64,000 nucleotides of DNA, from contig NC_086120.1 in assembly GCF_963921235.1 (NCBI RefSeq), positions 38,812,001 to 38,876,000 on the forward strand, read 5' to 3'. Positions 2,622 to 58,600 of the stretch are shown piece after piece; position 1 is the stretch's first letter, and each line of letters starts with the position of its first letter. A program made the position numbers and the translations under genes. The notes beneath the pieces were generated by a model. It made no database searches. It saw only the letters and a list, made by a program, of their open reading frames with translations, and had not been told where the DNA came from. Origin of the DNA: Mobula hypostoma (taxonomy: Eukaryota).

Positions 2622-2701
2622 CGGTGGTTCCCAACCTGAGGTGCACGGTCCCCGTCCTCAATAGTATTGGTCCATGGCATAAAGTAGAATGGGAACCCCT
2701 G
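2622..2701. mobile_element. hAT-Charlie-type MITE (~80 bp)
   Basis: TIR-like CGGTGGTTCCCA...TGGGAACCCCTG; 8-bp flanks atctaagg / atctagag fit the Charlie NTCTAGAN target preference; related copy at 14993-15069. Confidence 0.65.
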
Positions 2702-6110: not shown

Positions 6111-6649
6111 GTACTCCAGAATTTTTCTTGAAATCTTGAGTTCCAATTTGTAGAATTCAAAGTTCAAATAAATTTATTATCAAAATATTATCCTTGCTAA
6201 TCCACCCTAAGCCCTATTCAATGCTTCTTAGCTGAAACCGCAAGGCCCCTTCTTTCACTGACAAAAAATAATGTTGAGAACATGGGCCACTGCTTTAGCC
6301 CACCTACACTGAATGCTTATAAGATGTTCCACTGCAGAACTCTGCAACTTCACTTGTAGACTTACAACAGAAGACACTTGGCTAATGTTTGACATAAAAC
6401 TGTTGAAATAATGTGCTTTCATGTCAAAGTCAAAGTTAAAGAAAGGCAAAGCCAAAGGTAGATTTATTATCAAACTACACATATGTCACTGAGATTCAGG
6501 TTCTTATGGACATTCACAGTTGAACAGAGAAATACAATAGAATCAATGAAAGCTACACTCAGAAAAAGATAAACAGGCAACTATGCACAAAAGAAGACAA
6601 AATGACCAAATAAAAAATAATAAGTAATAATATTAATTATAATAAATAA

Positions 6650-7695: not shown

Positions 7696-8913
7696 ATAAA
7701 AATGATAACGATAACAAAAGTAATACTGAGAACATGAGTTGTAGAGTCCCTGAAAATGAGTCCATAGGTTGTGGAGTTAATTCAGAGTTGAGGTGAGCAA
7801 ATTATCCATGCTGCTTTAGGAGTCCGATGGCTGAAGGGCATTAACTATTCCTAAACCCAGAGGTGTGGATCCTAAGGCTTGTGTACCTCCTTCCAATGCT
7901 GCAGTGAGACGAGACCATGGCCTGGATGGTGAGAGTCCTTGATGATAGCTGCTCTTTAATGGTAATTACTGAAGGTAGCCTATCAACTTGAAGCTATTAT
8001 CATGACACAGCAGAGCTCAGGGAAAGTAACCTATAAATTAAACAATTAAACATATTTGAAACCCTTCTGATTTTTATCAGCTATTGCCTCACAGATATTA
8101 TTTCATTTAACCATATTTTTGCGAGATTTCAGTACCGTAATTTAATTTACCACGTTTTCAATGAATATTCATTTTGCGTGAATACTTTTAATTTTCTTTT
8201 TATGAACTTGGAATTGTTTTCTCACATTTGTCTTGATACAGTGAATAGTTTATCTTGCATACTGGTCTATTACACTGTGCATTTTAGCAGAACAAGGTAA
8301 ATTAATAACACCACAGAACAAAGTGTAACAGCTACAGAGAAACTGCAATGTAGTTAAACAATAAGGCGCAAGATCATAACGAGGTAAATTGTGAGGTCAA
8401 TAGCCCACCTTACTGTCCATCCAGGGAACATTCAGGAGTCTTATAACAGTAGAATAGAAGCAGTCTTTGAGCCTGGTGTCAGCCTTAATTTGGTGGTGTA
8501 TTTTAATGTTTCACTCTGAGATTTAAAGAATACTGAGTGTCAAAAGCAGGCCTTATGTGTCTCGAGACACACTTGTTAAAAGCATCAAGGGAAAATGTTG
8601 TTCCATGCTGCCAAGCTCCATCCCTTCTACAAATGTACAGATAACTTAGCAACTATTCAAGATTCCGGAGTCAAGATGCAAAATTGTTTCATTCTTCAGT
8701 ACGCAAGTGTAAAGGAGAACGAAATGACTGTTACTCTGGATCCGATGCAGCATAAAAAATGCAATGTATACACTAATTAAATTGGTGCATTTTAAAAGTA
8801 GAGGCTTAATACATTTGCAACCCTGACAGTAACAGGACTGACCAGCTTAAAGTAAGAAATGTGCATTGATCAAATCCGAATCACTAAACACTACTGGAGT
8901 TTTTCCTTAAGGA

Positions 8914-9048
8914 AGTCCTGAAGAAGGGTCTCGGTCTGAAATGTTGAATGCTAACCCTTTTCCATAGCTGCTGCCTGGCCTGCTGGGTCTCCAGCATTTT
9001 GTGTGCATTGCTTTGGATTTCCAGCACCTGCAGATTTTCTCGTGTTTG
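8914..9048 (+). mobile_element. PLE terminal fragment with decayed hammerhead motif
   Basis: AGTC-CTGAAGA-AGGGTCTCGGTCT-GAAAT-GTT followed by the family tail GCTGCCTGGCCTGCTG...CCAGCA. Confidence 0.7.
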
Positions 9049-9762
9049 TTTTTCCTAAATTTACAAGTTTTGTTATAATTTACAATTTCTATAGAAGGTC
9101 TTGAATGAGCTCCTTCCTGTACGTGTGGCTACATAATGGTGAGTGGGCTCACCACACAGACACTTACGGGCATCGGACATAGGGCATAAAACATAGGATA
9201 AGCACAAGAAATCCAAAGCAGCTGACACAAAATGCTGGAGGAACCCAGCAGGTCAGGCAGCATCTATGGAAATAAATAAACAGTGGAAGTTTCAGGCCGA
9301 GACCCTTCTTCGGGATTCTGGAACATAGGACACAGGACAATGACGGTACAGCACAGAATGGGCCCTTGTGTCACACAATGTTGTGAGGACCAATATAAAC
9401 CCCTATGATCAATCCAATGCCTGCCTTCTACGCAGCCCATAACCCTCCATCTTTCATACATCCATGTGTGCCTAACTCAGAGTTTCTTAAATGTCCCGAT
9501 TGTGTCAGCCTCATCCATCACGCCCATTATAATGGATAATGGGGCACTGCTGGGTATAGTATTGATGAAATATATGGGTGTGTACAATTTTGTGTTTCAA
9601 CATTTCTTTCAAAGGGGTCAGTTCAAGGTTTTCCAATGACATATTTCATCTTAAATTAATAATAGCAGTGCAAAGTGGCCCTGTTCTTCTGCTTTAGTTA
9701 TGAAATTTTATCTTCTCTATAGTTCAGTGTTTGCAATTGATTATTTTTGTCTATGACTTTAG

Positions 9763-9981
9763 AAACCTGTGACGGTGTGGACTGTGGACCGGGGAAGATC
9801 TGCAAAATGAACAAACATAATAAGCCAACATGCATCTGTGCGCCTGACTGTTCAAATGTCACAAAGAGAGTACCTGTATGCGGAACTGACGGTAAAATCT
9901 ACAAGGATGAATGCAGCCTCCTTTTGGCCAAATGCAGAGGATTGCCAGAACTAGAAGTACAGTATCAGGGAGAATGCAAAA
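9763..9981 (+). CDS. FSTL3: FSTL3 coding exon 3 (follistatin domain 1, EGF-like plus Kazal)
   Basis: gactttAG acceptor at 9761-9762 and GTAAGT donor at 9982; 219 nt, phase 1/1; [31 protein letters not shown]...[35 protein letters not shown] with 10 Cys. Confidence 0.95.
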
Positions 9982-10849
9982 GTAAGTTTTTATTCAACTT
10001 TCCTGGCATGTTAGGTGTTTCCCCCATCATTTTAGATTTCTCACTATTTCTTCATACTATCAAAGGGATTTCAAAGTTCAAAGTAAATTTATTATCAAAG
10101 TACATATAAGTCATCATATACTACCCTAAGATTCTTTTTCTTGCACAGTAGAGCAGTGAAATACAATAGAATCAATGAAAGACAGCACACAAACGAAGAC
10201 TGACAATCAATGTGCAAAAGAAGACAGTCTGTGTAAATACAATAAATAAATAAATAATACTGAGGATATAAGTTGCAGAGTCCTTGAAAGTGAACCCGTA
10301 AGTTGTGGAAGTAATTCAGAGTTGAGGTGAGTGAAGTTATCCACACTGGTTCAGGAGTCTAATGGTTGAAGGGTAATGACTATTCCTGAAGCTGGTGGTG
10401 TAAGACCTCCTTCCCGAAGACAGCAGCATGGCCTTGATGGTGGAGGTTCTTGATGATGAATGCTTCTTTCATGTGGTGGCACCCCTTGTAGATGTGCTCG
10501 ATGGGGAGGAGTTTTCCTGTGATGGACTGGAAGGTATCCACCACTTTTTGTAGTTTTTCCTGTTCTTGCATTGGTGTTTTGATACAGCTATGATGCACCA
10601 GTCAACATGCTCTCTCCACTGTGCATTTACTGAAGTTTGTTGAAGTTTTAGGTGTTTCTATTGATGGCTCTTCTTTATCACAAAGATTCTTTGGACAATG
10701 ATTGGAGCAAGCAAGGATTGTGCTTTCTCTCTGCATACATCAGCTGAGGTTTTCTGGGCTTCTTCAATGTACACATGGAATTAACTATCTATACAATTCT
10801 ATATAATCAGAAATAGAGATCACACTTGGGGTTTGTGCTTTTATTTTAT

Positions 10850-11340
10850 GAATTGAATTGACTTTATTTCTTACATCCTTCACATACATGAGGAGTAAAA
10901 ATCTTCATGTTACGCCTCCATCTAAATGTGCAATGTACAATCATAGTAATTTATAATAATTTATAATAAATAGAACAATCAATGTAACATAGAAATACAC
11001 TCAAATCAGCATGAGAAATGAATTTGAATTTGATTTTTGAATTGACTTTATTTCTTATATCCTTCACACATGTGAGGAGTAAAAATCTTTGTTATTTCTC
11101 CACCTGAATGTGCAATGTGCAAATTATAGTAATTTGTAATAAATAGTATGTACAGTAAGATACATAATAGAACAGTCAATATAGCTTAGAAATACAATTG
11201 TGTCAGCATGAATTAATCAGTCTGATGGCCTGGTGGAAGAAGCTGTCCCAGAGCCTGTTGGTCCTGGCTTTAATGCTGTGGTACAGTTTCCCAGATGGTA
11301 GCAGCTGGAATAGATTGTGGTTGGGATGACTCGGGTCCAT
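10850..11340 (-). mobile_element. LINE 3' end with tandemly duplicated tail
   Basis: Two copies of attgactttatttcttacatccttcaca...gaggagtaaaaatct at ~10856 and ~11041, followed by NSFFHQAIRL-like ORF end on - strand. Confidence 0.55.
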
Positions 11341-11712
11341 AAGTGCATTTATATTACAAAATCACTATACTTCAAAAATACTTATTTAGCGAAAAATCAC
11401 TTTGCTATATCCAGAAAGGGATGTGGAAGCAGCCATATAAATGCAGATCATCGTTTCAGTTGGTGGAGAGCAAACCCTAATTCTGTAAAACCTTAATTAG
11501 AAAGCTGCTACAAAATGAGAAGAGTACTGTAGTAAGTATAAGAAGAGGTCTTATGATTTATGTTGCTGCAGTCATGGGATTAGGCTGGCACAAACAGGCC
11601 TTTCAAACAGCTAATCATTTTCATTAATCTCTTTGGACCCCCTTCAGAGCCAACACGTCTTTCCTTAGATACAGGGTCCAAAGTTACTCACCATATTCCA
11701 AAGGTGGCCTGA

Positions 11713-12012
11713 TTTATAGGCATCCATTAGTCCCAAGAGACCATGGATTTGCGCCTTAGAAAGTTTCCAAGGCGCAGGCCTGGGCAAGGTTGTATGGAAG
11801 ACTGGCAGTTGCCCATGCTGCAAGTCTCCCTTCTCCATGCCACTGATGTTGTCCAAGGGAAGGGCATTAGGACCCATACAGCTTGGCACCAGTGCCATTG
11901 AAGAGCAATTTATGGCTAAGTGCCTTGCTCAAGGACACACATGCTGCCTCAGCCTGATTTGTACTAGCAACCTTCAAATCACTAGACAAACTCCTTAACC
12001 ACTTGGCCACAC
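11713..12012 (-). mobile_element. tRNA-derived SINE with CORE-like domain
   Basis: Head GTGGCCAAGTGGTTAAGG; CORE-like GTGTCCTTGAGCAAGGCACTTAGCC; TSD ggtggcctga at 11703-11712 and 12013-12022. Confidence 0.7.
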
Positions 12013-12242
12013 GGTGGCCTGACTAGCGCCTTGCAACGCCTCAGCAGAATAAGTGTTTAACTTAAGTTGAATAACTTTCGCTTAAAGTATGATTGGTTTT
12101 TCACACAATCTTTGTGTCTATCAGTAAACGTAGATCATATTTTCAATTAGTTGCTGTTGCATCCATTACAAGTTGCACTTCACTGATGGAGAATATACTT
12201 TCCTTGTATTGCTCACCACTGTATGCTACAAATGTCTTCCAG

Positions 12243-12470
12243 AGTCTTGCACGCAGGTTTTGTGCCCGGGAACCTCTATGTGCGTGATAGACCAGACTCA
12301 CAGTGCGCACTGTGTGATGTGCAGAGTGATGCCGTGTCCGGAACCATTGTCGTCTGAGCAGGCGCTCTGTGGCAACAACGGGGTTACCTACCATAGTGTC
12401 TGCCACCTGAGACGTGCCACTTGTTTGCTGGGAAAATCCATTGGTGTTGCCCACTATGGAAGATGTAACT
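12243..12470 (+). CDS. FSTL3: FSTL3 coding exon 4 (follistatin domain 2)
   Basis: tcttccAG acceptor at 12241-12242 and GTAAGT donor at 12471; 228 nt; [27 protein letters not shown]...[34 protein letters not shown], with FSTL3-type SAHCV and LCGNN motifs. Confidence 0.95.
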
Positions 12471-13327
12471 GTAAGTAAAAGATTCCAAGAGTTAAGATTG
12501 TTTAATGTTATTTCCTGTACGTTTCTTGTGTCTTGTGTTTGTAAAGTACTGTAACCCTGACGGGAAATGATAAAGTAGTGGTGGTGGGGCGAGGGGGGAT
12601 GGTGTTGTGGGGTAGGTTAGTGGGTGGAGGTGTGGATTAGCCTTACTCCTTGCAGAAAGTAACTGATTTTCAGTCTGGTGGCCCTGGTGTGGATGCTACA
12701 TAGCCTCTTCCTTGATGGGAGTGAAACGAACAGTCCATATGAAGAAAGGTGGCATCCTTTTTGATGTTACTGGCCTTTTTCCAGCACCATTCTCTATATA
12801 CTGTATGTCCTTGATGGTGGGTAGGCGGGTACTAGTGATGCATTGGGTAGTTTTGACTACCTGTTGTAGAGCCAGCTTGTCTGCCGTTTCCAAACCAAGT
12901 GATGCAGCATTTTGGGATGCTCCGTACGGTGCACCTGTAGAACAGTCCTCCTCTTCAGCCTCCTCTGAAAGTAAAGCTGTCAAATATGTTTGAGCTGAGG
13001 AAGATGGTCTCAGCTTAAACACATGAGAAAATATGACCAGTTTTGTAAAATAAATTAAATTTTTTTGCATCTGGAGGTGTTGGTTTATACATCTGTGTGC
13101 TTTGCATTCATTGACTTATATTTAAAATGGATGCAAAGTGTATGAGACCATAAGATTTAGAGCAGAATGAGGCCAATCAGCCCATTGAGCATATCCTGTC
13201 ATTCAATAATGATGATTTTATTAATGCCTTTCTCCCCATGACTCTTAGTCCCCTTACCAATCAAAACCTATCAAGCTCTTGACTGACTGACCACAGATCC
13301 ATTAAGATCTAATATTATTTTTAAAGA

Positions 13328-19220: not shown

Positions 19221-19685
19221 ATTATAAATGCAGTCACTTTATTAAATCTCCAAGCATCGGTAATGAAGGCTCTCCCACAGAAATAATTTAAGAGAAATGC
19301 ACCAATGTAAAAAATGTTTTGATGTACAATGGGAATTTTACAAGTCAATGGTTCACAATCATCCAGCAGGGAATGAAATGTGGTATCTTTGTGACTCCAG
19401 ACCCACTACTGCATGGTACATTCTTGAATACCCTCTGAATATCTCAGCGAGATACTCAGTTGCATCACTACAGGGTCTGCAGTGGTTCAAGGAGACAGTC
19501 TCCACTTCAGCAAAGGCAACTGGAGTATGTGCATTCCGTGAATGAATAAATATGTATCTATTGGAATGTAACGATCATTGCAAATTTATATCTTCAACTG
19601 TTTTTAACCTTTTTGTTGGACTTCTAATTATGAATCATGATGATGTATCCAATTAAAAAACTTAAAAATATTAGTAATAAATATA

Positions 19686-20237
19686 TAGTATTGTGCAAAA
19701 GTATTAGATATATATATATCTAAGACTTTTTCACAGTACTGTGTTTGTCAACATGGAGCAGAAAACAAGTCTGTAAATCTGGCAGAGCAAAGGATGTTGG
19801 GAATGGCGAGGGTGGAATGCCACGGGAGGGGTGTGGGACAGGCGGCAGTGCCAGGGGTTGGGGTAGCATGGATGCAGACACACCCAGCCCTGAGACACCA
19901 GGCAAGATCATTTGATTCCAAACAATTGGTTTATTGATCATTACAGAATGTCTTTCTGGTGCTTCTCCCTTCCCCCTTTTCCCAACCATGATACTCCTCT
20001 CCCTGCCCCCTTCCCACTCTCAGTCCACAATAGATACCCAGATCAGAATCATGTTTATCATCACTCACATATGTCATGAAATTTGATTTTTCTTTTGGCA
20101 ACTGTGCAGTGCAATGCATAAAATTACTACAGTACTCTGCAAAATTTTTAGACACCTTAGCTATATATATATATACACACACACACATACATACATACAT
20201 ATATACAGTATGTGCCTAAGAATTTTGAACAGTACTG
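19686..20237. mobile_element. Composite Tc1-like element with hairpin MITE ends (also 40612-41151; partial at 27458-27965)
   Basis: Each end is a small CAGTACTGTGCAAAAGT...ACTTTT.CACAGTACTG-like inverted repeat; interior shared with 40612-41151 in opposite orientation; TA flanks. Confidence 0.65.
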
Positions 20238-27297: not shown

Positions 27298-27457
27298 NNN
27301 NNNNNNNNNNNNNNNNNNNNNNNNNNNNNNNNNNNNNNNNNNNNNNNNNNNNNNNNNNNNNNNNNNNNNNNNNNNNNNNNNNNNNNNNNNNNNNNNNNNN
27401 NNNNNNNNNNNNNNNNNNNNNNNNNNNNNNNNNNNNNNNNNNNNNNNNNNNNNNNNN
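27298..27457. other. Assembly gap (160 N)
   Basis: Run of N. Confidence 1.
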
Positions 27458-27615: not shown

Positions 27616-27822
27616 GGTCGATAACGAGAGGGCATGGGTAAACTGACTATAATAGAATATGCTGGGTATAGAGTTAATACCTCACAATCTTGTTAGTGCT
27701 TTCTCAATGCCACAAATTAATTTTGAATTAAATTAGATTAGATTTATTTGTTACATGTTCATACAGTGAGATGCCTCCTCTCGTTCGCATCAGCAACCAG
27801 CACAGTTTGTCCAAGGATTGCG
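27616..27822 (+). repeat. Direct duplicate of 29139-29345
   Basis: ~205 bp differing by only a few substitutions. Confidence 0.9.
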
Positions 27823-28029
27823 TTGAGACACCAGGCAAGGTAATTCGATTCCAAACAATCGGTTTATTGATCCTTACAGAATTTTTCTCTGATGCTTCCC
27901 TCTTCCTCCCCTCTCTCTGCCCCCTTCTCACTCTCAGTCCACAATAGAGACCCATATCAGAATCTGCTTTAAATATGCTCAATGACTTGGCCTCCAGAGC
28001 CGCGTGTGGCGATAGATTTTACAAAAGGA

Positions 28030-28794: not shown

Positions 28795-31108
28795 CAGATC
28801 TCCAGAGAGTTGCTGGATCCACATCATTTTCCCCTTGCTGTCAATGGCAATATTTCTTTTAAAGAGTCCCAGTTGTTCACTCTTCAAGAATGTAGACCAG
28901 ATAATTGAGATAACAATACTGTACGTCAAACTGAAAGTGTCTGCACACATGGTCCCCTGCTGAGGATAGAGTACTGTACAGACCCAATAGAAAGCATGTG
29001 AATTTTTTTCCCCTCCAATTACAACCAAACTTTGCATGGTTACGTTTTCAAAGTAAATTCATAAAAAAATGAAATGAAACCCCTCAGCCCGAACCCCCTC
29101 TGCTTTAAGTTGTTGAATTTTCACCTTTCCTACCTTCTGGTTGATAATGAGAGGGCATGGGTAAACTGACTATAATAGAATATGTTGGGTATAGAGTTAA
29201 TACCTCACAATCCTGTTAGTGCTTTCTCGATGCCACAAATTAATTTTGAATTGAATTAGATTAGATTTGTTTGTTACATGTTCATACAGTGAGATGCCTC
29301 CTCTCGTTCGCATCAGCAACCAGCACAGTTTGTCCAAGGATTGCGCTGGAGGTAGATTGCAGGTGTTGCCACGTTTCTGGTGCCCCCGCAGCATGCCCAG
29401 AGCTCACTGATCCTAAACCTAACCACATGTGTGTGGAATGTGGGAGAAAACTGGAACACCCACACAGAACAAAACAATCTCCTTAGACGGTGGCGGGAAC
29501 CAAGCCCTCGTAGGTGACCGGTGGCACTGCAAGGCAATTGCACTAACAACTACACAAACATACTGCACATTTAAAGAACACTTTACCCGTTGCAACCTTA
29601 CAAATTTTTAATTTGAAGCAAGATCTTAAGAATTCTGATATGCAGTAACCAAGTACTTGTATTATGGCAATACATTCAATGTGCTGGAGGAGATCAGCAG
29701 GTCAGGCAGCACCAATGGATGGGAATAATCAGTCAATGTTTCAGGCTGAGACCCTTCATCAGGGTTCAATGCTCCTGTATGGTCCTGTCTACCTCAGGTA
29801 TCATTGTACAATATTGTCACAGCTCCTGTATGATTCTGTTGTTGCTCTGAGATCACTGTACAATATTGTCACAGCTCCTGTATGGTCCTGAGTTCCTCCA
29901 GCACAATGTGTGCTGTGCATTGCTCTAAATTTCCAGCACCTGCAGTACCTCTAGTGTCTATGGTTTGTAGTATGGCGTGAGGAGGCAAAGAAAAATGAGG
30001 AGAGAAAATGTGAAATAAGACAAGAACCACAAGACGGCTAGACATAAAACAACAGAACCATTATTCCAACACAGCTTTTGAACAAACACTAGAAATTCCA
30101 ATTGATTGGCATGTCTTTACCATTAAAATAATGATTAAAAAATTTAAAAAAACGATTGACTCCATCTCTCACCAATCTTGCTTATTAAAACGCTGAGGAA
30201 GATTGAAATCATCGAGGTGGGTACGGAGGGCGTGCGAGTGTTCAGCGCTGCCTACTAGCCCCTTGCTCACGGCTGCTAGAGGAGGGTGTCTTCATGTGGC
30301 AGTCTCTCCCTCCCTCTCACTTGCTGCTCTCGAGGGAAGGGTCCTTGCAATCGAATGGTCAGTCTCTCTCTCAATTCTGTCAGAGGCTGGTGCGGGAGCA
30401 AGGACTAATCACTGCAGTTTGTAGATTTGGTCTCTAATTCAGCTTTCTCAAGTGTTCTAGTTTAGGTCACTCCTTTTTGGTTGCTACTTTTGGGTGATTT
30501 TTAAATCGGGGTGGCCTGCAGACTGAGCAGAACTGAAGCATTCCTTTTGATTCTGTGTTTTATATTCTGTGTTTTTACTCTTTTTTTGCTGCCATTTGCA
30601 AGATTTGTTTTTGCAGGTGGGGGAGTTGATTTTCTTTGAACGGGTTGGTTCCATGGATCTTTGTTTTGTGACTGTCTGTGGGAAACTCGAATTTCGGGAT
30701 TGTATGCTGCATACGTACTTTGATAATAAATGTATCTTAATTCTTTGAATCGTTAAAAAATCTAGTGTGTTTTATAATTGGATGTTAATACAACAATTTG
30801 ATTGTATGTAGTACAATGGCATATGAATATTAATACTATTTAAGTAGACTGCTACTCTTCGCCTCAGGACATTATAGAAGCCAGCATCAGAAAACATTGG
30901 TTACCATAAGTATTCCAAAACTATTTTTACTCACGAGGTATTTTTACATTTTGAATTCCGATCATTTTTATTGGAAAGAAAATTCTTGTATTGTGGCAGC
31001 ATTCTCTTCCTAAATTTCTTTGGCTCTTTGGCAAAAAGAAGGTCATCAAGTCTAGTTTTAACTTAGTAATTTAAGTTTTAGTCTTTCTGAGTAATATCCA
31101 GATGTATT

Positions 31109-31574: not shown

Positions 31575-33520
31575 CCTACCTTTACCTCTCCCCACTGCAC
31601 TTTCCACAGGGATCGCTCCCTCTGCGATTCACTTGTCCATCCGTCCCTCCCCACTAAGCTCCCTCCCAGCACTTATCCCTGCAAGCGGCTTCAGGCACAC
31701 ACCTTGCCGTTCACCTCCATTCAGGGCCCCAAGCAGTCCTTCCAGGCAACATTTCACCTGCAGATCAGCTGGAGTCATCGCCTGATGCGGCCTCCTCTAC
31801 ATTGGTAAGATGCGTCATAAATTGGGGAACTGCTTATGCGAGCACCTCTGCTCCACCTGCCAAAAGTTGAACTTCCCAGTGTCCAAACACTTTAATCCCA
31901 ATTCCCATTCCGGTTCCAATATGTTGGTCCGTGGCCTCCTCTTGTGCCAAGATGAGGCCACCTCAGGGTGGAGGAGCAACACCTTATATTCCAGCTGGGT
32001 AGCCTCCAACTTGATCACATGAATATCGATTTCTCCTTCTAGTAAGTTTTTTTCCTTTCCCTCCCTCCCCATCTCCCTTTCAGGGAATTACAAGGAAGTT
32101 ACTAGCATGGGTGGAGCATTGGCTGATCGGCAGAAAACAGAGAGTGGGAATAAAGGGATCCTATTCTGGCTGGCTGCCAGTTATCAGTGGAGTTCCACAG
32201 GGGTCAGTGTTGGGACCGCTGCCTTTTACAATGTATGTCAGTGATGTGGACTATGGAATTAATAGACGTGGCTAAATTTGCCAATGATACAAAGATAGGT
32301 GGAGGAGTGGGTAGTGTTGAGGAAACAGAGAGCCTACAGGGAGAGTTAGATAGTTTAGAGGAATGGGCAAAGAAGTGGCAAATGAAATACAATGTTGGAA
32401 AGTGCATGGTCATGCGCTTTGGTGGAAGAAATAAACGGGCAGACTACTATTTAGATGGAGAGAGAATTCAAAATGCAGAGATGCAAAGGGACTTGGGAGT
32501 CCTTGTGCAGGATACCTTAAAGGTTAAACTCCAAGTTGAGTCGGTGGTGAAGAAGGCAAATGCAATGTTGGCATTCATTTCTAGAGGTATAGAATATAAA
32601 AGCAGGGATGTGATGTTGAGGCTCTTTAAGGCACTCATGAGACCACAATGTGTGCAGTTTTGAGCTCCTTATTTTAGAAAGGATATACTGACACTGGAAA
32701 GGGTTCAGAGAAGATTCATGAGAATGGTTCCAGGAATGAAAGGGTTACCATATGAGGAACATCTGGCAGCTCTTGGACTGTACTCCCTGGAGTTCAGGAG
32801 AATGAGGGGGGATCTCATAGAAACATCCTGAATGTTAAAAGGCCTGAATAGATTAGATATGGCAAAGTTATTTCCCATGGTAGGAGAGTCTCGGACAAGA
32901 GGGCATGACTTCAGGATTGAAGAATGTCCATGTAGAACAGAGATGCAGAGAAATTACTTTAGTCAGAGAGTGGTAAATCTGTGGAATTTGTTGCCATGAG
33001 CAGCTGTGGAGGCCAAGTCATTGGGTGTATTTAAGGCAGAGATAGATAGGTTCTTGATTAGCCAGGGCATCAAAGGGTATGGGGAGAAGGCAGGGGAGCG
33101 GGAATGATGGAAGAATTGGATCAGCCCATGATTGAATGGTGGAGCAGACTCAAGGGGCCGAATGGCCTACTTCTGCTCCCATATCTTATGGTCTTCTGGG
33201 TCTTCTTCTATTCCCGATGCTGACCTTCTACCCCTTCATACCTGCCCATCACTTTTCCTTGTGTTCTCTCCTCTGCTCCCTTTGCCTATGGTCCATTCTC
33301 CTCTCCTATCAGATTCCTTCCTATCCAACCCTTTCCCTTTCCCACCCCCCTGGCTTCACCTATTACCTTCCAGCTAGCCTGCTTCCCCTCCCTCTCACCT
33401 TTTTATTCTGGTGTCTTCCCCCTTCCTCATCAGTCCTGAAGAAGGGTCTCTATTTGAAACATCAACTGTCTATTCATTTCCATAGATGCCTCCTGAGCCG
33501 CTGAGTTTCTCCAGCATCTT
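31575..33520 (+). mobile_element. PLE GIY-YIG and 3' region interrupted by a CR1 LINE
   Basis: QHFTC.S.GVI..CGLLYIGK..LG....EHL...FPVSKHFN..SH; resumes at ~33200 with hammerhead remnant at 33431-33468. Confidence 0.75.
32081..33198 (+). mobile_element. CR1/HER1-like LINE, 5'-truncated
   Basis: SGVPQGSVLGP, AKFANDTKIGG, WQMKYNVGKC, VVKKANAMLAFISRG; tail CTGCTCCCATATCTTATGGTCTT. Confidence 0.88.
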
Positions 33521-35402: not shown

Positions 35403-36512
35403 CATAAGACCATAAGCCAAAGGGGCAGAATTAGATCATCTGTTCCATTGAGTCTGCTCTGCCATTCAATCATGGCTGATTCTTTCTCCCCTTCCTCAGC
35501 CCCACTCCCTGGCCTTCTCTCTGTAACCTTCGATGCCATGTCCAATGAAGAACCTACCAAGCTCTGCCTTAAATACACCCAATGACCTGGCCTCCACAGC
35601 TCCCTGTGGTAACAAATTCCGCAAATTCACCACCTTCTGGCTAAAGAAATTTCTCTGCATCCCTGTTTTAAATGGATGCTCCTCTATCCTGAAGCTGTGC
35701 CCTCTTGTCTTAGATTCCTCCACCATGGGAAACATCCTTTTCACATCTACTCTGCTTAGGCCTTTCAACATTTGAAAGGTTTCAATGAGATCGCCCCTCA
35801 TCCTTCTAAATTCGAGCAAGTACAGACCCAGAGCCATCAAACATTCTTCTTATGATAACCCTGTCATTCCCGGAATCATCCTTGTGAACCTCCCCTGAAC
35901 CCTCTCCAATGCCAGCACATCTTTTCTTAGATAAGGAGCCCAAAACTGTTCACAATACTCAAGGTGAGGCCTCACCGATGCCTTATAAAGCCACAGCATC
36001 ACATCCCTGCTCTTATATTCTAGACCTCGTGAAATGAATGCTAACATTGCATTTGCCTTCCTCACCACCAACTCTACCCACAAGTTGACCTTTAGGGTGT
36101 TCTGCACAAGGACTCCCAAGTTCCTTTGTGTCTCAGATTTTTGGATTTTCTCTCCATCTGCACACTTATTTCTACTACCAAAGTGCATGACCACGCATTT
36201 TCCAACATTTTATTTAATTTGTCACTTTCTTGCCCACTCTCCTAATCTGAGTAAGTTCTTCTGCAGCCTACCTGTTTCCTCAACACTACCTGCCCCTCCA
36301 CCAATCTTCGTATCATCTGAAAACTTGGCAACAAAACAATTTATTCCATCATCAAAATCAATGATATACAGCATAAAAAGAAGTGGTTCCAACACCGACC
36401 CCTGTGGAACACCACTCGTCACTGGCAACCAACCAGAAAAAGATCCTTTTATTCCCCTTTGCTGCATCCTACCAATCAGCCAATGCTCTAACCATGCCAG
36501 TAACTTTCCTGT
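35403..36512 (-). mobile_element. CR1/HER1-like LINE, 5'-truncated
   Basis: SGVPQGSVL.PLLF, AKFSDDTKIGG, RPHLEYC.QFWAP, RRMRGDLIETF; (TCTTATGG)-type tail. Confidence 0.88.
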
Positions 36513-37044
36513 GATACATGAAGAAGCTTCTCACATTGTTCTGAAATGTTGACTCTTTATTCCTCTCCATGGACGCTGCCTGACTCGCTGAACTCCTCTA
36601 GCATTTTGTATGCGTAGCTTCTCACATTGTTGTAGTTGCTTCTACCTACACCAGGGGTTTGACTGTCATTCACCAGGAGTTTCAAGGTATGCAATAATTC
36701 ATCCACAGTGGGGTACTGATTAGTAATTGGTGTCCAACAGACTGTAATTTCTTGCTTTGACTCACTATATCAGCCAGGGTTGTTTCCCTCACTGTCAGTA
36801 TGTGTTGAGGGCTTACTATTGGACATATTGTGTGAAATGGATACAAATGCATCCAAGACCTGTCTCAGCTCCGCGGACTACAATCACACTGCAGTGCAGC
36901 TGAGGGGTTAAGATTGTCAATGTTTGGAATATCAGGTCCAATCTGAACACCCTCCACTCTGAGCACCTCCCAGTCTGCAGGACCACACTGATCACTCAGA
37001 GGAAAATTCTGGGCTGAGGTCTGTTAGTATTCTTATTTTATTTA

Positions 37045-39790: not shown

Positions 39791-40611
39791 TCTTCAAACA
39801 GAGCAAAAGCACGTAATTATGAAAAAATGGAAATGAAAGCATGAGAAATCCCATGCAATGCTTCAAAATGCAGAAGTAAAATATTTGAACAAAGAATCCT
39901 GATTAAGGGTCTCAGCCTGAAACGTTGACTGTTTCATTACCCCCATAGCTGCTGACTGACTTGCTGAGTACCTTCAGCACTTTGTGGGTGTTTCTCAAGA
40001 TTTCCAGCAGCTGCAGAATCTCTTGTGTCTTTGAACAAAGAAAACACCCATGATAAAGTGACAATAATCATTGATCAGTAATTCATTATTTATGAAAATA
40101 AAACAGGTGTTAGAAGCATCAGAAGAGATCAATTGTTGCTTGAAGTGCACAAACCAACACTAGAGGTTCAAATATTTATGAGACATAGAGATTTTAATTT
40201 ATTTAAGAGATTGGTATGCTGTACATTGTGAAAGGCAAGTCAAAGGCCATTTTTGCCAATAGTAATACTGAGATTAGAATTAGAATCAGGTTTAATATCA
40301 TTTACACGATATGAAATTTGTTGTTTTGCAGCAGCAATGCATTACGATACATAATAATAAAATTATAAATTACAATAAGAAATATATAGAAAAATTAAAT
40401 TTAAATAATAGTGCAAAAGGAGAGGGAAAAAATAGTGAGGTAGTATACATGGGTTCATTGTCCATTCAGGAATCTGATGGCAGAGGTACACAAGATTTTA
40501 AAATAAATTTCCTTTCTGAACAAGGGTAGGAATATTAAAACTCAATCAGAATCACTTTATTGCCAGTATGTGAAACATAGCAGACTTGATTTTGGTTTGG
40601 TGCCAAGCATA

Positions 40612-41151
40612 CAGTACTGTGCAAAAGTCTTAGGCACAAATACAGTATATAGATAGAGTGCCTAAGACTTTTGTACACTACTATAGTAATATTATGTATT
40701 GTACTGTACTACTGCTGCAAAAAAAATCAAATTTCATGACATATGTGAGTGATGATAAACCTGATTCTGATATGGGTCTCTATTGTGGACTAAGACTGGG
40801 AAGGGGGGCAGGGAGAGGGGAATCACGGTTGGGAAAAGGGGAAGGAAGAGGGGAGGGAGTGGGGTGAATCAAAGAGACATTCTGTGATGATCAATAAACC
40901 AATTGTTTGGCATCAAATGACCTTGCCTGTTGTCTGAGGGCTGGGTGTGTCTGTACCCCCAATGCCCACCCCAAACCCTGGCACTCCTTCTGTGCCACGG
41001 GTACAACACCCCTCCTGTGGCGAATCCACCCCTCTCTTTCCACCAGATTTACAAACTCGTTCTCCACTCCATGTTGGCAAATACAGTAGTGTTCAGAAGT
41101 CTTACGCACCCCAGCTATATATACGTATCTAAGACTTATTGCACTGTACTT
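40612..41151. mobile_element. Composite Tc1-like element with hairpin MITE ends
   Basis: TA-CAGTACTGTGCAAAAGTCTTAGGCAC start; second mini inverted repeat at 41083-41151; same interior as 19686-20237. Confidence 0.65.
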
Positions 41152-42072
41152 TAAAACACAGGACAATACCATAACAGACAACACAATAACAACCAACAAT
41201 TTACCAATCATATAATGCAAACAGCCATGAGCAATCAGTAATTAACAGAACGGTCACATATGCAAACATCAATAATCAAACTTAAATAAACACGAACATA
41301 TGAACAGATGAAATTTTTATCAACACAACAAGGGGAGCAGGAAGAACCATTTAATGGATGTTCATGGATGGACTTTCTTTAATTCAGTTATGGCAGTATT
41401 GGCAATGAATTAGTCCCACAAAATTAAGTTATCCAATATTTCTTCATATCTCTTTCAGCTTCATCAAAGAAACAGCTGTCCGTCATGTTTGTTATGCTTT
41501 GCAACTTCAAAACATTAAAGTAATTCAAAGGAATTCATGGGAGTCTGGAAATGTGGGTCTAACTTTGTGTTTACATTAAGCAAGGCACGCACGTATCACA
41601 TGGTAGTGTGATGATGCATGCAATTCCTGTATTTATACATATAACCCATAATGAATTATTGAAATGAACAAGAATGATTAATCAGCCATTATATATATGC
41701 TAGATTACTCAAATATTATTGAAACATTGAATACACAACACTCCTCCCTGCTTAGCTATAAACTCCAACTCAATAGAGAATTCATGTCAACTACATACAC
41801 AATATATTATAGAATATAACTGCTACATAGAGACATCGACATCATAGTAAATTTAAAATTCTCCCATTCAGGCCTAAAGATTTAATCGCTTACTCTTGCA
41901 GGACTTCTTACTCTTGTGGGATAACATCTTTTCTGACAAGGGGGATCACTCTGCTTGACAGGTGAGACGCAGCCGTGACGTGAAAGCAATCTCTGTTTCT
42001 GGGGCCTCCTCTGTGCTCGTTGTAGGAATTGATTCTGAGACTGGAGGAAGTGGTTCTGACAGCAGTAGCCAC

Positions 42073-42453
42073 CTTTCTTCTTCTATTTTGTGCATCTTGA
42101 TCTTGAGAAGGTGCATTTAGTTCACTGGAGTATTCTTTTATTAACCCTTCTGTTGCTCCCTTTACGATTGGATCTCTCCTCTTGGTTTTCCCATCCATAA
42201 TATTATCTGACAAATCCTCTGTTTTCCTACCTCAATTGACTCCTTTCTTTTTGGCCTTCCATCCATCCAAATCAGCTTTGGTCTTTGCATCTACTTTTAC
42301 AAGGAACTTTTTGCCTCCCACTTGAAGTTCATGCGATAACCTTAATGTACGCCAAATAGATTCTGGTTCTGTATACGCACAAAAGCAGAATGCTTGCATC
42401 TTTCCTGAAGCTCCTTGAGCTCTCTTCCAGCTTAAAACCAAGCCACATTTGGC
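42073..42453 (-). pseudogene. RBM25: Captured intronless RBM25 coding fragment (RRM C-terminal half plus linker) inside the LTR element
   Basis: 127 codons in one frame: AKCGLVLSWKRAQGASGKMQAFCFCAYTEPESIWRTLRLSHELQVGGKKFLVKVDAKTKADLDGWKAKKKGVN*...KTKRRDPIVKGATEGLIKEYSSELNAPSQ, colinear with recalled vertebrate RBM25 AKCGLVLSWKRVQGASGKLQAFGFCEYKEPES...LVKVDAKTKAQLDEWKAKKK...ETKRRD...IREYSSELNAPSQ; one in-frame stop at 42232-42234. Confidence 0.9.
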
Positions 42454-43190
42454 TTTTTTTCTCTTCCCAATGCAGTCCTTTTATATTTGTCTGCCTGACA
42501 TACTCCTTGTATGTATCCTACTTTGTTACATTTTTTGCAAGCTTTGGCTTTAAATCTGCATTGATCTGGTGTATGTGAGCCCTTGCCACAATGGTAACCC
42601 AATTTGTTCGGCCAAGGAGGTTTCTGTTTCGACTTTACAATTTTGCTCACACTCACTTACATTCCTGAATGCAACTCACTTGCATCTCTCTTGGTGGTTT
42701 CCATTGAAATACCTATTTCAACTGCTCTTTTAAATGTAATTTGTGCCCTCAAGTAGGAGCCACTTTTGAATGCTTTCTTGCAAGATTACTAAAACTAAAT
42801 GATCTCTTAGAGCATGATTAAACCCAGTGCTGAACTGACAACAGACATTCCTTCAGTTCAGCTATTTAGGCTGAAATGAACTCCCCTTCCTTTTGATTCG
42901 GTTGTAAAACTTGAAGTGTTCTGCAATCAACAATGGCTTCAGTTCTAAACGTTTCTGTCTTCCTTTGGCAATATCAGCAAAGCTAACTTCTGCTGGCTTG
43001 GTTGGAGCAGTCAAACTTCTAAGCAAACTATATGCCTTTAAACTGAATGAACTCAGCAAAATTGGTACTTGCTTCTCATAAGTTAATTCATTTGCTTCAG
43101 AATATTGTTGAATTAACTCAGTATATATATATATATATATTCCAGTTATCTTTTTTGTAATCAAATGTGTCAGTTTATCCTATGTAGCCA
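42454..43190 (-). pseudogene. Gypsy gag remnant
   Basis: YSLLRSLTAPTKPA.VSFADI...KPLLIAEHFKFY motif and tandem zinc knuckles YHCGKGSH..DQC.FK...CKKCNKVGY....C; frameshifted. Confidence 0.8.
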
Positions 43191-45700
43191 CCCATTTCTG
43201 CTCTTTATTATGATTATTGTCACTCAGTACTCACTCTTTATGAATTTGTAAATTTTTCCATTTTCTGCCTTTCTTTAAATCTCTATCGTGTCTTCCCTTC
43301 TGAAAAACATGTGCTGGCCTGCATTTTTTTACTCACCATGTTTTTTTTCAGTTCCAACAACTCACTGCACTTCAACAAGTTGATAGCCTTCTCGAGTTCA
43401 TTTTAAAAATAGCTTGGCAGTAATGTTATGTTTTGCAACTTCAAAACATTAAATGGATTTAAAGGAAGATATAAGAGTCCAGGAATGTGGGTATATCTTT
43501 GTGTTTACCTTAAGTGAGGCGTGCATGTCCAATGGCATAGCTTGATGACGTATGCAATTCTCATATTTATACACATAACTTATAATGATTTATTTAAATT
43601 AACACCAATGTTTAATAAACTAATACACAAAATTACACAAATATTATTGAAATATTAAACACAGCGGTATTTTCGCAATCTCTTTGAGATGAGAAGTTTG
43701 ATTTCTCTTTTTATTTATTTTATTTAGAGGAACAGGTCCTTCTGGCCCAAAGAACTGACCGCCAGCAACCCACCTCTTTAACCCCAGTCTAATCACAGGG
43801 AAATTAACAATGACCAATTAATCTACTAACCAGTACATCTTTGGGCTGTGGGAAGAAACCAGAGCACCCGGAGGAAACCTATGCATTTCATGGGGTGGAC
43901 GTATAAATTTTGCATTGGAAAGGAATTTTATTTCATTTCATTGGTTTCAATCTAGTTTGAAATTGTGGTCCCATCAGCCAAAACCCTTGTCAAATACTCT
44001 GTCAAGTTATTCTTCTTTCATTGGCAGTGTGATGTCTTACATAACCTATCAATCTTAAAATCAATAGAAATGAATTTTTGGAGACAGACTCTTGTGATTA
44101 GACAAATGGATTTTTAGGTATACATCTTTAAACCAAGCTCGGTTCTGTCAGAATACATTACTAAATCTCCAAACATCAAGTTAAGGAACATGTAAACTGA
44201 TCTTCTAAAGATGAATGATTACTGAGTGCCAAGAATGTCCACCATCTCCAGCATTCTGCACCAATGATGTGGTCCCACGTTGAGTCACTGATCACAGCTA
44301 CCTCATTAAGTGGTGTCCAAATGAAGACTTAGAAATGCTACGACTACTCAAGTTGGCTAGAGGCTTTAGTGAGTGACTCATGCCCTGATGGCCCCAAACC
44401 TTTTTTACAGGATGCATCAGGAGAGGATGGAATTCTGTTCCCTTGTGTGGATGATTCCAACTCCAAAGATACTCAGGAACCACTCTATCCAGGGTAAAAC
44501 TTCTTAATGATTGACAGCCACCCAAAATATTCACTTCCTCTACTACAATTGTACAGTGACTAAAATTGGAAATGGCAAGTCCTGGAGAGTGTTGTAGAAC
44601 AGAGAGAACTAAGGGTGAGGTTACATCATTCCCTGAAAGAGGAGACACAGGGAGGAGTGTGAAGAAAGTGTCTGGCCCTTGCCTTCATCGTTCAGGGACG
44701 TTGGGTACAGGAGTTGGATGTCATGTTACAACTGTACAAGTCATTGATGAGACTACAGTATCACGTATAGTTCTGGTCACCCATCTATAGATTGAATATC
44801 ATTAAACTGCAAAGGATATAGAAAAGATTCAGAAGGTTGTTACCAAGATTGGAGGGTTTGAGTTATCAGGGGAATCGTCGGTAGAATTCCATGTGGGCAA
44901 GAGGCATGGCAAATGGTGACCTCTCTAGGTACGCAAATTTACGAGACCACAGCCTGAGGCCTAGCTTTTGGGGTCGCATCATCAGAGAGTCTAGAGTCAA
45001 GACCTGGAGTTCAGTGTCCTCATACATTGTCATCAGTGAGTTCTGGGATCAATATTAAAGATGGACAGCCGGTGGTCAATCGGAAGTCTGGAATTCGAAG
45101 CCCATTGGCCAGAGCCATGACATTGTGAGTCCACTGCCGACATTGAAGGCCCAGTGTCTGCGAATCCATGAGTCCATCTGAGGCTGGTGTTAGGAGGAAG
45201 CTTGTCTTGGGATTGAAGGGCTGGGTATGTGTGTAGGATAGGTGGGTGTCTGTGAGGGAGGAAAGTGACTGGTCTATCTGTTTTTGCTTTGTTGCTAGTT
45301 TTGCTCTGTGTTGTGCGACTGAGTACTGTGGGCATGCTATGTTTGCACCAGAATGTGTGGTGACACTTGCGATTGCCCTCAGCTCATCCTGAGGTTGCAT
45401 TGGTTGTGAACACAAACAACGCATTGAACTCTATGTTTCAATGTACATGTGATAAATAAATCTGAATCTGAGAGGCTGGATAAGCTGGGACATTTTTCCC
45501 TGGAGTGTAAGAGGATAAGAGTTGAGCTTATTTTGGCAGATAAAATCATAAGAGACATAAATAAGGTAAATGGTCACTGCCCTTTCCCCTGGATAGGGTA
45601 GGTAGGTTTGAGTGGCAGGGTGGAGATACGTCTCTACCAACAGAGTTGTCAGGCACTCCTTCCATCCGCTCGCCTGCAAGTCACCCTTGGGCAAGGTGTA

Positions 45701-46428
45701 AACACCCGAGGTCCAGAAGCACTTAGGAGTCCTCATGCGAGACTCCCAGAAGGTTAATTTATAGGCTGAATCTGTGGTAAAGAGGGCAAATGCAACATTG
45801 GCATTTATTTCAAGGGAAGTCAAATATAAAAGCAAGGAGATAAAGCTGAGCCTTTACAAGGCACTAGACATGCCACACTTAGAATATTGACAACAGTTTT
45901 GGGGCCAATATCTCAGAAAGGATGTGTTGTCATTGGAGAGAGTCCAGAGGAAGGTCACAAGGATTATTCTGGGAATGAAGGGGTTAACATATGAGGAGCA
46001 TTTGGCAGCTTTGGGCCTGTACTCACTGGAATTTAGAAGAATGCTGGGGGATCTCATTGAAAACTACCGAATATTGAAAGGATTAGACAGGGTGGATGTG
46101 TAGAAGATGTTTCCTATGGCAGGGGTATCCAGAACTAGAGGGCACAACCTCAAAATTGAGCTGTAACCCTTTAGAATAGAGGTAAGGAGTAATTTTTTTA
46201 GCCGGAGAGTAGTAAATCTGTGGGATGCTCTTCCACAAACTATGGCGGAGGCCAAGTGTATGCAAATATTTAAGGTGGAAGTTGATCGTTTACTGATCGG
46301 TCAGGGCATCAAAGGATATAGCAAGATGGCAGGTGTATGGGGTTGAGTGGGATCCGGGATCAGCCATGATGGAATGGCAGGGCAGATTTGATGGGTTGAA
46401 TGGCTTAATTCTGCTCCTATGTCTTACA
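45701..46428 (+). mobile_element. CR1/HER1-like LINE inserted into the RTE-related element
   Basis: VVKRANATLAFISR and PHLEY motifs; CTGCTCCTATGTCTTA tail; TSD gtgta at 45696-45700 and 46429-46433. Confidence 0.8.
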
Positions 46429-47099
46429 GTGTAGCACCTGTTTAGCACAGCCCCCCAACGATCAGGGTCTCTTGTAGTCATGGATATTTGTACGAACGGT
46501 TGGTGCATATCACAAACCCTGGTTATGCAACCACTAATGCCAGACAGACAAGCACTAATGAGTGCACTGCCCAGAAAAATGAAATGGCAAACCACTTCTG
46601 TAGAAAAAGTTGCCAAGTACAATTATGGTCATAGAAAGACCATAATCGTCCACGTCATATGACACAGCACATAATAATGATGCTGTTGTCTAAAGCCATA
46701 GGGAATAGGTGTATGATGAGAGGAGAAATATTTAAAATGGACCTGAATGGCAACTTTTTCACATGTGGAGGGTGTATGGAATGAGCTGCTGAAGGGAGTA
46801 GTAGAGGTAGACATTTAGACAGGGATATCGATAGAGAAGGTTTAGAGAGGTATGGGCCAAACAGAGGCAAATATGATTAGCTCAGGTTGGCATGGATGAG
46901 ATGGGCCAAATGGCCTGTTTCTGTGCTTTGTAAGTACATGGCTCTGTGGATCCATGTTATTTACCAAATGAATTGTGATTTCTGGCCTTGTTTACTTCAA
47001 CACATTGCTAACCTATGACCTCCAGTGCCAAGCAGGACAAGGTCAGCAAGTCAATGGGAGCACAACCACATGCAGGTTTTCCCTAAGCTTCACACAATC

Positions 47100-48959: not shown

Positions 48960-51069
48960 GAAGGGAAGGAGAAACTAAGCCAGAATAAGAAGGTGGGGTG
49001 AAGGGAAGGAGCACGAGCTAGAAGATGAAACCAAGTGGGTGGGGGAGGAGGGGGAATGAAGTAAAAAGCAGGAAGCTGATAGATGGAAAAGGTAAAGGGC
49101 TGGAGAAGAAGGAATCTGAAAGGAAAGGAGAGCAGACCATGGGAGAAAGGGAAGGAGGGGTAACAGCGTGGGGAGGGGTTAGGCAGGTGAGGAGGGAAGA
49201 GGGAAGGGGAGGAGGAGGAGGAGGAGGAGAATTACTGGAAATTTGAGAAATCGATGTTTATGCTGTCAGGTTGGTGGTTATCCAGATGGAATAAAGGGTG
49301 CTACTCCTCCAACTTGAGAATGGCCGCATTGTGGCGGAAGAAAAGGCATGGACTGACATGTTGGAATGGGAATAGAGATTGGAATTGAATTTTCTGGCCA
49401 CTGGAAAACATAAGGACATTAGAAATAGGAGCAGGAGTAGGCCATCTGGCCCATCGAGCCTGCTCCACTATTAAATAAGATCATGGCTGATCTGGCTATG
49501 GACTCATCTTCACCAACTGCCTTTTCCCCATGGTCCCTAATTCCCCTACTATGCAAAAATCTATCTAAGCTCGTCTTAAAAATGCTGCATTGTGCAGGTG
49601 GAACGAAGGTGCTTGACAAAGTAGTCTCCCAATCTATATCGACTCTACCAATATGAAAACTGGAAGGATGTTTGAGGCCCTGAAGGAAAGTGAGAGAGGA
49701 AGTGAATGGACAAGTGTAGCACGTCTTCCACTTGAAGGGTTAACTCCAGGGGGTAGATGAGTGGGAAAGTACGAATGGACAAGGGATCACAAAGGGAGCA
49801 ATCCCTGTAGAAAGTAGAGAGTGGGCGGAGGGGTAAAGATGTGTTTGGTGGTAGAATCTCATTAAAGATGGCAGAAGTTGCAGAGGATGACATGCTGGAT
49901 ACGGAGGCTCAAGGGTTGGTAGGTGAGGACAAGAGGAACTCTATCCCTGGTAAGGGATGGGAAGATGGGGTGAAGGCAAATGTCTGGGAAATTGAGGAGA
50001 TGTGAGTGAGAGCAGCATAAATAGTGGAGGAAGAAGGAGGACATTTCTGATGTTCTGGAAATGAAAACCTCATCCTGGGAACAGGTATGGTGGAGACAAA
50101 GGAACTAAGAAAATGAAATGACATTTTTACAGGAGACAGGGTGGGAAGAATATAGTCAAGATAGCTGTGGGAGTTGGTTGGTTTATAAAAGATATCGGTA
50201 GACAGCTTGTCTCCAGAGATGGAGACAGAGAGATTGAGAAAGGGGAGGGAGGTGTCAGAAATGGACCAAGTGAATATAAGGCCAATGGAAGTTGGCGGCA
50301 AAGTTGATGAAATTGTGAGCTCAGCATGGGTGCATGAAGCAGTACAAATGCAGTCATCAATGTAGTACAGAAAGAGTTGGGGAGCAATACCAGGGACAGC
50401 TTGGAACTTGGACTGTTTGACATAACCAACAAAAAGGTAGGCATAGGTGTGGCCCATGCAGGTGTGCATGACTACACCTTGAGTTTGGAAAAAATGGGAT
50501 GAGCCGAATGAGAAATTGTTGAGTGTGAAGACCAGTTTTTCCAGATGGAGGAGGGTGGTGGTGGAGGGGAACTGGTTGGGTCTGTTGTCAAGAAAGAAGT
50601 GGAGAGCTTTAAGGTCTTCTTGATGGGGAATAAAAGTTGTTAGGGACTGAATATCCATGGTGAAATTGAGGCAATCTGGCCCAGGCAATTGAAAGTTGTT
50701 GAGGCAATCAAGACCACGTGAAGTGTCATGGGTGTAGGTGGGAAAGGACAGAACCAAGGGGGATAAAATGGAGTTGAGGTATGTGGACACAAGTTCAGTG
50801 GGGCAGGAAATGGCAGAACAATGGGCCTACCTAGACAGTCAGGTTTGTGCATTTGGGTAGGAGATAGAAATGAGCAGTGCAGGGTAAGAGGGTCTATGAG
50901 GTTGGTGGCAGTGAATGCGAGATCTCCAGAGTTGATGAGGTCAGTGATGGTGCGGGAGACAATGTCCTGATGGTTCTGAGTGAGACTTTTTCAAGAGTAA
51001 ATAAGAGGAAGTGTCTGAGAGTTGCCATATGGCCTCAGCAAGGTAGAGGTTATTTACTATTACAAACGT

Positions 51070-58004: not shown

Positions 58005-58600
58005 TAACAAGGCTCTACAAGGCGCTGGAGAGACTTCACTTGGAGTACTGTGGGCAGTTTTGGTCTCTTTATTTAAGAAAGGATGTGCTGACATTGGAGA
58101 GGGTACAGAGAAGATTCATTAGAATGATTCTGGGAATGAGAGGGTTAACATATGAGGAATGTTGTCTGCTCTTGGACTGTATTCCTTGGAGTTTAGAAGA
58201 ATGAGGGGAGACCTTATAGAAACCTTTTGAATGTTGAAAGGCATGGACAGAGTGGATGTGGCAAAGTCGTTTCCCATGATGGAGGACTCTAGTATGAGAG
58301 GGCATGATTTAAGGATTGAAGAGCGCCCATTCAGAACAGAGATGCGAAGAAATTTTTTTAGCCAGAGGGTGGTGAATCTATGGAATTTGTTGCCACGGGC
58401 AGCAGTGGAGGCCAAGTCATTGGGTGTATTTAAGGCAGAGATTGATAGGTATCAGAGTAGCCAGGGCATCAAAGGTTATGGTAAGAAGGCGGGGGAGTAG
58501 GACTAAATGGGAGAATGGATCAGCTCATGATAAAATGGCGGAGCAGACTCGATGGGCCGAATGGCCGACTTTTGCTCCTTTGTCTTATAGTCTTATGGTC
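58005..58600 (+). mobile_element. CR1/HER1-like LINE 3' part
   Basis: LYKAL.R.HLEYC.QFWS, FFSQRVVNLWNLLP; tail TTGTCTTATAGTCTTATGGTC. Confidence 0.85.

Follow-up and report, generated by a model that had tools for sequence, protein, structure and literature searches.

A 64-kb stretch of contig NC_086120.1 of Mobula hypostoma (positions 38,812,001 to 38,876,000; hereafter the window, numbered from its first letter) carries a decayed long terminal repeat (LTR) retrotransposon in which a piece derived from RBM25 messenger RNA (mRNA) has almost certainly replaced the pol gene within a Gypsy shell. The unit occupies 2177 nt on the minus strand and consists of a 5' LTR, a leader, gag, the RBM25 insert, a pol tail, a polypurine tract (PPT) and a 3' LTR. 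Judged by its sequence, it is a non-autonomous Ty3/Gypsy derivative; reverse transcriptase (RT), by whose phylogeny a Gypsy clade would be assigned, is absent. The origin that we favour as the probable one is LTR-mediated retrocopying, in which two template switches onto a co-packaged RBM25 mRNA were followed by integration with proteins supplied in trans. The features of the element, in their order along the minus strand, are as follows.

43667..43671, - strand: upstream copy (AATAC) of a candidate 5-bp target-site duplication (TSD), weak
43424..43666, - strand: 5' LTR, 243 nt, starting with CG (a decayed TG) and ending with CA
43196..43423, - strand: leader from 5' LTR to gag, with no recognisable primer-binding site (PBS)
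42454..43195, - strand: Gypsy gag, from the first Met to just past two zinc knuckles, located by tblastn with proteins P0145 and P0146
42453..42468, - strand: 5' junction, a 16-nt purine run ending gag, followed by RBM25
42073..42453, - strand: insert apparently derived from RBM25 mRNA, 381 nt, 127 codons, firm to 42091
42072..42090, - strand: 3' junction zone, purine-rich, either the RBM25 lysine run or pol (I-E-E-E-R); candidate microhomology
41882..42072, - strand: pol C-terminal tail and stop, about 60 codons with one frame change, stop at 41884-41882
41741..41753, - strand: PPT, directly before the 3' LTR
41490..41740, - strand: 3' LTR, 251 nt, TG...CA
41485..41489, - strand: downstream copy (AACAT) of the candidate TSD, weak

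Identity of the insert

The insert covers the C-terminal three-quarters of the RRM of RBM25 and the linker that follows, in a single frame, without an intron and in the same sense as gag. A protein search with its translation, in which the stop was given as X, returned RBM25 (222 matches among 350 candidates, best E about 1e-45), and the best 120 of these 222 matches were 59-69% identical to the insert. The top match was the RBM25 protein of the shark Heptranchias perlo (E 9e-55), which agrees at 98 of 127 residues without gaps; among the 35 named RBM25 proteins compared, the next best matched 89 residues. An intron-less RBM25 segment in sense orientation, as proposed in a preliminary description of this DNA, is thus confirmed. 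Its proposed length of 381 nt is firm as far as 42091, while the last 18 nt (42090-42073) can be read either as RBM25 or as pol. A search of the PDB gave only a weak match to a PABP RRM.

In a tree of 23 rows, the insert grouped with shark RBM25 (support 96/95), a placement made less sure by the long branch of the insert and by the presence of one cartilaginous fish among the rows. Since the best match is a shark protein, sequence similarity points to a shark or ray host, with its own RBM25 gene as the probable donor. In the H. perlo protein, the RRM lies at residues 56-124 and the insert begins at residue 75; the insert is therefore without the first 19 of about 70 RRM positions, and the PWI domain is absent. 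With a truncated RRM and no PWI domain, it is unlikely that the insert ever worked as RBM25. No chimeric gag/RBM25/pol protein was present among the 120 best RBM25 matches. Similarly, none of 47 matches covered more than 70% of a 190-residue query spanning the junctions, a weak negative given that the search covered annotated proteins of 104-333 residues (71 candidates).

The template of the insert

Exon borders were deduced from errors and variants in 103 named RBM25 gene models, with 37 unnamed or contamination-labelled matches left out. In six of the 103 models, five residues are inserted between insert codons 20 and 21, the pattern expected of an alternative splice donor. In two of the 103, the sequence beyond the position of codon 74 is unrelated, as would result from reading through into an intron, and three of the 103 start at, or are mis-joined to, insert codon 2. 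These models would place exon-exon junctions inside the insert near 42393 and at 42232/42231, and an exon start between 42451 and 42450. The H. perlo RBM25 model departs from homology a few residues beyond the end of the insert. We take the deduced borders to agree with those of the human gene.

Because the insert spans two deduced intron sites unbroken and starts one codon before a third, its template appears to have been spliced mRNA, as the preliminary description had held in proposing a host mRNA carried by a non-autonomous element. The evidence for this derivation, drawn from gene models of other species, is indirect but consistent. Further, no run of six or more A was found inside the insert or at its 3' end, and no duplication of at least 6 nt flanks it. 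It is cut on both sides within coding sequence, and it replaces sequence of the element and does not interrupt it. The preliminary description had named three observations that would speak against a transduced mRNA, namely a best match other than RBM25, correspondence to a single exon, or a poly(A)/TSD signature. Instead, RBM25 is the best match, the deduced exon borders are crossed, and the insert has neither poly(A) nor TSD.

The Gypsy shell and the missing pol gene

The 5' and 3' LTRs are direct repeats with 75.8% identity over 248 columns (E 2e-44), and the local score of the pair is 203, against 38 for the highest of 300 shuffles. In tblastn comparisons, gag matched (E 4e-44) the UniRef protein P0145 from Scleropages formosus, which has domains for protease and RT; it also matched P0146, the best gag match, and P0237, and for gag-pol polyproteins the match extends through both zinc knuckles. 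The knuckles lie at about 42599-42558 and 42539-42498, each with one of its four zinc ligands missing, and the translation of gag is interrupted by three in-frame stops and by about four changes of frame. Purines occupy 12 of the 13 positions of the PPT. The order of LTR, gag, RBM25, pol tail, PPT and LTR proposed for the minus strand is thus upheld. The closest gag relatives are 48-53% identical (two matches among 13 candidates; a separate search gave 554 matches, the best at 52%). No close parent element was found among them, and relatives at this identity are too distant for junction DNA to be compared.

A pol C-terminal tail had been recognized previously. Its last 30 codons match the C-terminus of P0146 with a score of 55, which none of 5000 shuffles reached, and when 8526 six-frame windows of the 64 kb were compared with that C-terminus, the two highest scores both fell in the tail. 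However, the tail as first quoted spans two frames, and its first half (the part with SEPLPPVSES) does not match P0146 significantly (470 of 5000 shuffles). The more distant P0237 matched neither half. P0146 itself, a protein of 652 aa, contains gag, protease and the pol C-terminal tail with no match to RT, RNase H or integrase, and is either an internally deleted element or a gene-model artefact.

The end of gag and the pol tail, both of which match P0146, are discontinuous parts of one LTR element. In P0237, a protein of 1367 aa, Pfam places protease, RT, RNase H and integrase in Gypsy order within a single open reading frame (ORF). Compared with this length, about 247 codons of gag and about 60 codons of pol tail are left here, which suggests that about 3.1 kb encoding protease, RT, RNase H and integrase is missing exactly at the insert. 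Comparison with the polyproteins of relatives gave no match to any of the four anywhere in the element, in agreement with the earlier claim that protease, RT, RNase H and the integrase core are absent. As Pfam assigned no family at cut-off to the element's own fragments or to the RBM25 insert, the identity of both rests on homologue searches.

The remaining signals of the element are poorly preserved. By eye, no PBS was found after the 5' LTR, which is not followed by a TGG start; decay would hide one. Scans for transfer RNA genes and Rfam families were empty. The two copies of the candidate TSD match at three of five positions, both differences being transitions, and are decayed at best; among random local pairs, 2% show such a pattern and 13% any three-of-five match, the boundary having been picked after alignment. 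Self-comparison of the 64-kb window gave no second copy of the element, nor were its two flanks found elsewhere in the window as halves of one repeat. The dispersed family suggested in the preliminary description is neither borne out nor contradicted by this one copy.

Age and decay

Of 243 sites compared between the two LTRs, 35 show transitions and 24 transversions, which gives a Kimura two-parameter (K2P) distance of 0.30 (95% 0.23-0.39), or about 0.15 per LTR (95% 0.11-0.195). The insert contains an in-frame TGA at codon 74 (42234-42232), which the preliminary description did not mention, and differs from shark RBM25 at 29 residues, 27 of which need one base change. Changes are found at 16 of 82 conserved residues (those that are the same in 90% or more of the 35 named proteins), and the terminal branch of the insert in the tree is 0.72, against 0 for shark RBM25.

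Simulated neutral decay of the insert fits best at about 0.10 substitutions per site, with a compatible range of 0.08-0.15. The chance of 16 or fewer changed conserved residues is 0.42 at 0.11 substitutions per site, 0.07 at 0.15 and 0.007 at 0.195. A single stop among 127 codons likewise agrees with what neutral decay would give. Since both the decay and the single stop accord with neutrality, there is no sign of purifying selection, nor of a long earlier career of RBM25 as a passenger. Frameshifts number zero in the 381 nt of the insert, versus about five in the 932 nt of gag and tail, a difference that is not significant (P = 0.13). The small shortfall of decay in the insert leaves room for brief constraint or for later replacement. 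Neither an open frame under selection nor a complete domain, as expected of a functional captured gene (a retrogene, or one like a viral oncogene, v-onc), was found. The LTR divergence, the broken gag and the stop in the insert bear out the earlier view of an old and dead copy, and most likely it does nothing now.

Route of capture

In the retrocopy that we favour, spliced RBM25 mRNA would have been packaged with Gypsy RNA in one virus-like particle. While making the minus strand, RT would have departed from the element RNA close to the pol end, continued on RBM25 mRNA for 381 nt and then gone back to the element immediately behind gag, with the switches probably taking place at short stretches of purine-rich similarity. 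Such switches would replace about 3.1 kb of pol while both LTRs and the PPT were kept, so that proteins supplied by the particle could integrate a 2.2-kb non-autonomous element. After integration, it would have decayed without detectable selection. In support of this route, the LTRs, gag, pol tail and PPT all share one orientation and follow each other in the correct order.

Both junctions fall at purine runs, which make up two of the six runs of at least 10 nt in the element. The purine richness of the 3' zone is partly RBM25's own sequence, and the purine runs are only suggestive candidates for microhomology. RBM25 and gag are not in phase in this copy, and the gag frame stops seven codons past the junction. 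Programmed frameshifting at an A-AAA-AAG heptamer (42453-42460), with RBM25 in the -1 frame, was considered and set aside; gag and pol of the relatives lie in one ORF. The phase of a decayed A-run says little, so the heptamer was discounted and is probably a coincidence.

Several observations weigh against the two-switch retrocopy. The 5' junction lies three bases from a deduced exon start, which a splicing route predicts directly. The best-fit decay of the insert is somewhat below the per-LTR value, which leaves room for a later replacement at the DNA level. Further, given the decay of PBS and TSD, integration of the chimera itself cannot be proved from them, and microhomology at the switch points remains only a candidate from the sequence.

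Read-through transcription followed by splicing is the other classical route of retroviral capture. Here, an element in or upstream of RBM25 would have used a cryptic donor at the end of gag, spliced to an RBM25 exon, and a single template switch would have restored the 3' end before the product integrated at this site. A junction so close to an exon start is an event of about 5% for a random breakpoint if exons are about 140 nt long (an estimate), and the mid-exon 3' junction is also what this route predicts. However, RBM25 begins three bases before the deduced exon start, and these three bases, GCC, encode alanine, the residue with which the upstream RBM25 exon closes in the shark protein. 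The codon suggests that the exon was already joined in the template and favours a spliced mRNA over a gag donor spliced to the exon, but GC turns up by chance at 4-5% of positions here, which tempers the argument. In addition, no other RBM25 sequence was found elsewhere in the 64-kb window. Capture by read-through and splicing is unlikely.

Replacement at the DNA level, in which a break in an inserted Gypsy element was repaired from RBM25 complementary DNA or a processed pseudogene with deletion of pol, is doubtful to a similar degree. The decay of the insert slightly under the LTR clock would fit it, and processed pseudogenes are common in cartilaginous fishes, with 14,081 retrocopies counted in a 2026 preprint (bioRxiv 10.64898/2026.06.26.734816). 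However, the decay shortfall is not significant at the point estimate. Moreover, the insert lies in the sense of the element and all cis signals at both ends are kept, which reverse transcription requires and repair does not.

A more far-reaching reading can be given little credence. It would make the locus one copy of a once-mobile, multi-copy Gypsy family of sharks and rays that captured RBM25 by read-through and splicing, and once expressed a Gag-RBM25 fusion or RBM25-matching small RNAs acting on a dosage-sensitive splicing regulator.

An insertion of a retrocopy made by a long interspersed nuclear element (LINE) into a pre-existing Gypsy element, with deletions later trimming both sides, is very improbable. 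Remnants of LINEs are present in the window (RVT_1 match at 36225-36530), and the same preprint has non-LTR elements tracking retrocopy numbers across vertebrates (bioRxiv 10.64898/2026.06.26.734816). However, the insert is without poly(A) and TSD, its 3' end is deep in coding sequence, and 3.1 kb of pol as well as the remainder of the mRNA would have to be lost by further deletions. Misassembly, by which a genomic repeat was joined to a transcript or gene of RBM25, might be suggested by the single copy seen but is scarcely credible, as the 29 residue differences (16 at conserved sites) and the stop show that the insert is not a live gene or transcript, and the sole N gap of the window lies at 27298-27457.

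Comparison with known systems

In acutely transforming retroviruses (v-onc capture), gag is kept, pol is replaced by cellular mRNA, and a helper is needed. The present element is alike in its retained gag, in the replacement of pol by cellular mRNA and in its dependence on a helper, but it has no intact fusion protein, no env and no evidence of a selected function. The analogy with oncogene capture drawn in the preliminary description therefore holds for the proposed route and fails for the outcome, a stop-containing part of an RRM with no PWI domain, out of frame with gag and with no sign of selection.

A closer counterpart is found in LTR-mediated retrocopies, a published and widespread class described in Drosophila, mosquito and zebrafish as well as in chicken, mouse and human, and defined by fragments of mRNAs that stand in place of internal ORFs of LTR elements (Tan et al., 2016; PMC5131818). 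Microsimilarity was reported at 25 of 29 Drosophila junctions, and switch points of a Gypsy element (BLASTOPIA) lay near exon-exon junctions (PMC5131818). Among young retrocopies, five of seven in zebrafish and four of ten in chicken were made by LTR elements, some of these retrocopies were re-mobilised, and older ones mostly carried loss-of-function changes (14 of 21; PMC5131818). The RBM25 insert shares with these cases an mRNA cut at both ends that replaces an internal ORF, flanks that are discontinuous halves of one element in the same orientation, sense orientation, and the absence of poly(A) and TSD at the insert. It differs in its cartilaginous-fish host, a group not sampled in that study, and in being far older than the young cases reported there. 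RBM25 is not named in nine of the ten supplementary files of PMC5131818, a weak absence as parent genes are given there by Ensembl id.

Similarly, endogenous retroviruses (ERVs) of crocodilians contain KIT-ligand (CrocERV29) and nectin3 (CrocERV31; PMC4299795). Both systems have host mRNA in an LTR element of a slowly evolving vertebrate, and nectin3 replaces a viral gene. The crocodilian captures are the stronger case, being retroviruses that occur in several copies and whose intact ORFs are under purifying selection (PMC4299795), whereas the present locus is a Gypsy element seen in one copy, with a broken part-domain and no sign of selection. According to the summary in PMC5131818, maize Bs1 and HERV-K/FAM8A1 are likewise non-autonomous LTR elements with an interior of host mRNA. 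Bs1 contains pieces of three genes in one to five copies with shared switch points, unlike the single copy seen here.

Within the literature searched, from which subscription papers were mostly absent, no description was found of this element or of LTR capture in sharks or rays. The abundance of retrocopies in cartilaginous fishes has been tied to non-LTR elements, and RBM25 does not occur in the main text of that preprint, whose supplementary tables may list this locus (bioRxiv 10.64898/2026.06.26.734816). Shark and ray retrocopies are currently credited to LINEs. The present locus extends LTR-mediated retroposition to what is apparently a cartilaginous fish, a lineage for which no described case was found. 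The capture signature is readable after about 30% LTR divergence, beyond the age of the published young cases, which suggests that such fossils could be counted across whole genomes of sharks and rays, whose evolution is slow. As for the locus, it is almost certainly inert, and no existing concept is altered by it.

Other features of the window

Exons of a follistatin-family gene lie at 1325-12475 on the plus strand, with FST_N at about 1424-1603 and follistatin/Kazal domains at about 9760-9980 and 12242-12470. No third follistatin/Kazal domain was found in that gene, and two such domains presumably fit FSTL3 rather than follistatin. The Gypsy/RBM25 element lies about 29 kb downstream of this gene.

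Repeats surround the element on both sides. A repeat resembling a short interspersed nuclear element (43762-43907) lies just upstream of the 5' LTR, and nine matches related to it occur elsewhere in the window. One copy of a repeat of about 500 nt (40646-41153) lies just downstream of the 3' LTR and is 76% identical to another copy on the opposite strand (19684-20167); it is accompanied by a 28-nt inverted repeat at 40610-40685 and is possibly a small DNA transposon. One LINE-like element has left decayed copies at 32087-33199, 35403-36530 (with the RVT_1 match), 45708-46430 and 58011-58598. On the minus strand, 58702-59013 matches Pfam ALKBH8_N (E 3e-9), a profile that often matches LINE 3' ends in fish-like genomes. 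A stop-free frame of 305 codons at 49912-50826, also on the minus strand, had no Pfam match at E 0.001; we take it to resemble a remnant of a Penelope-type reverse transcriptase. The assembly gap at 27298-27457 consists of 160 N and lies near a 210-nt stretch repeated at 96% identity (27616-27825 and 29139-29348).

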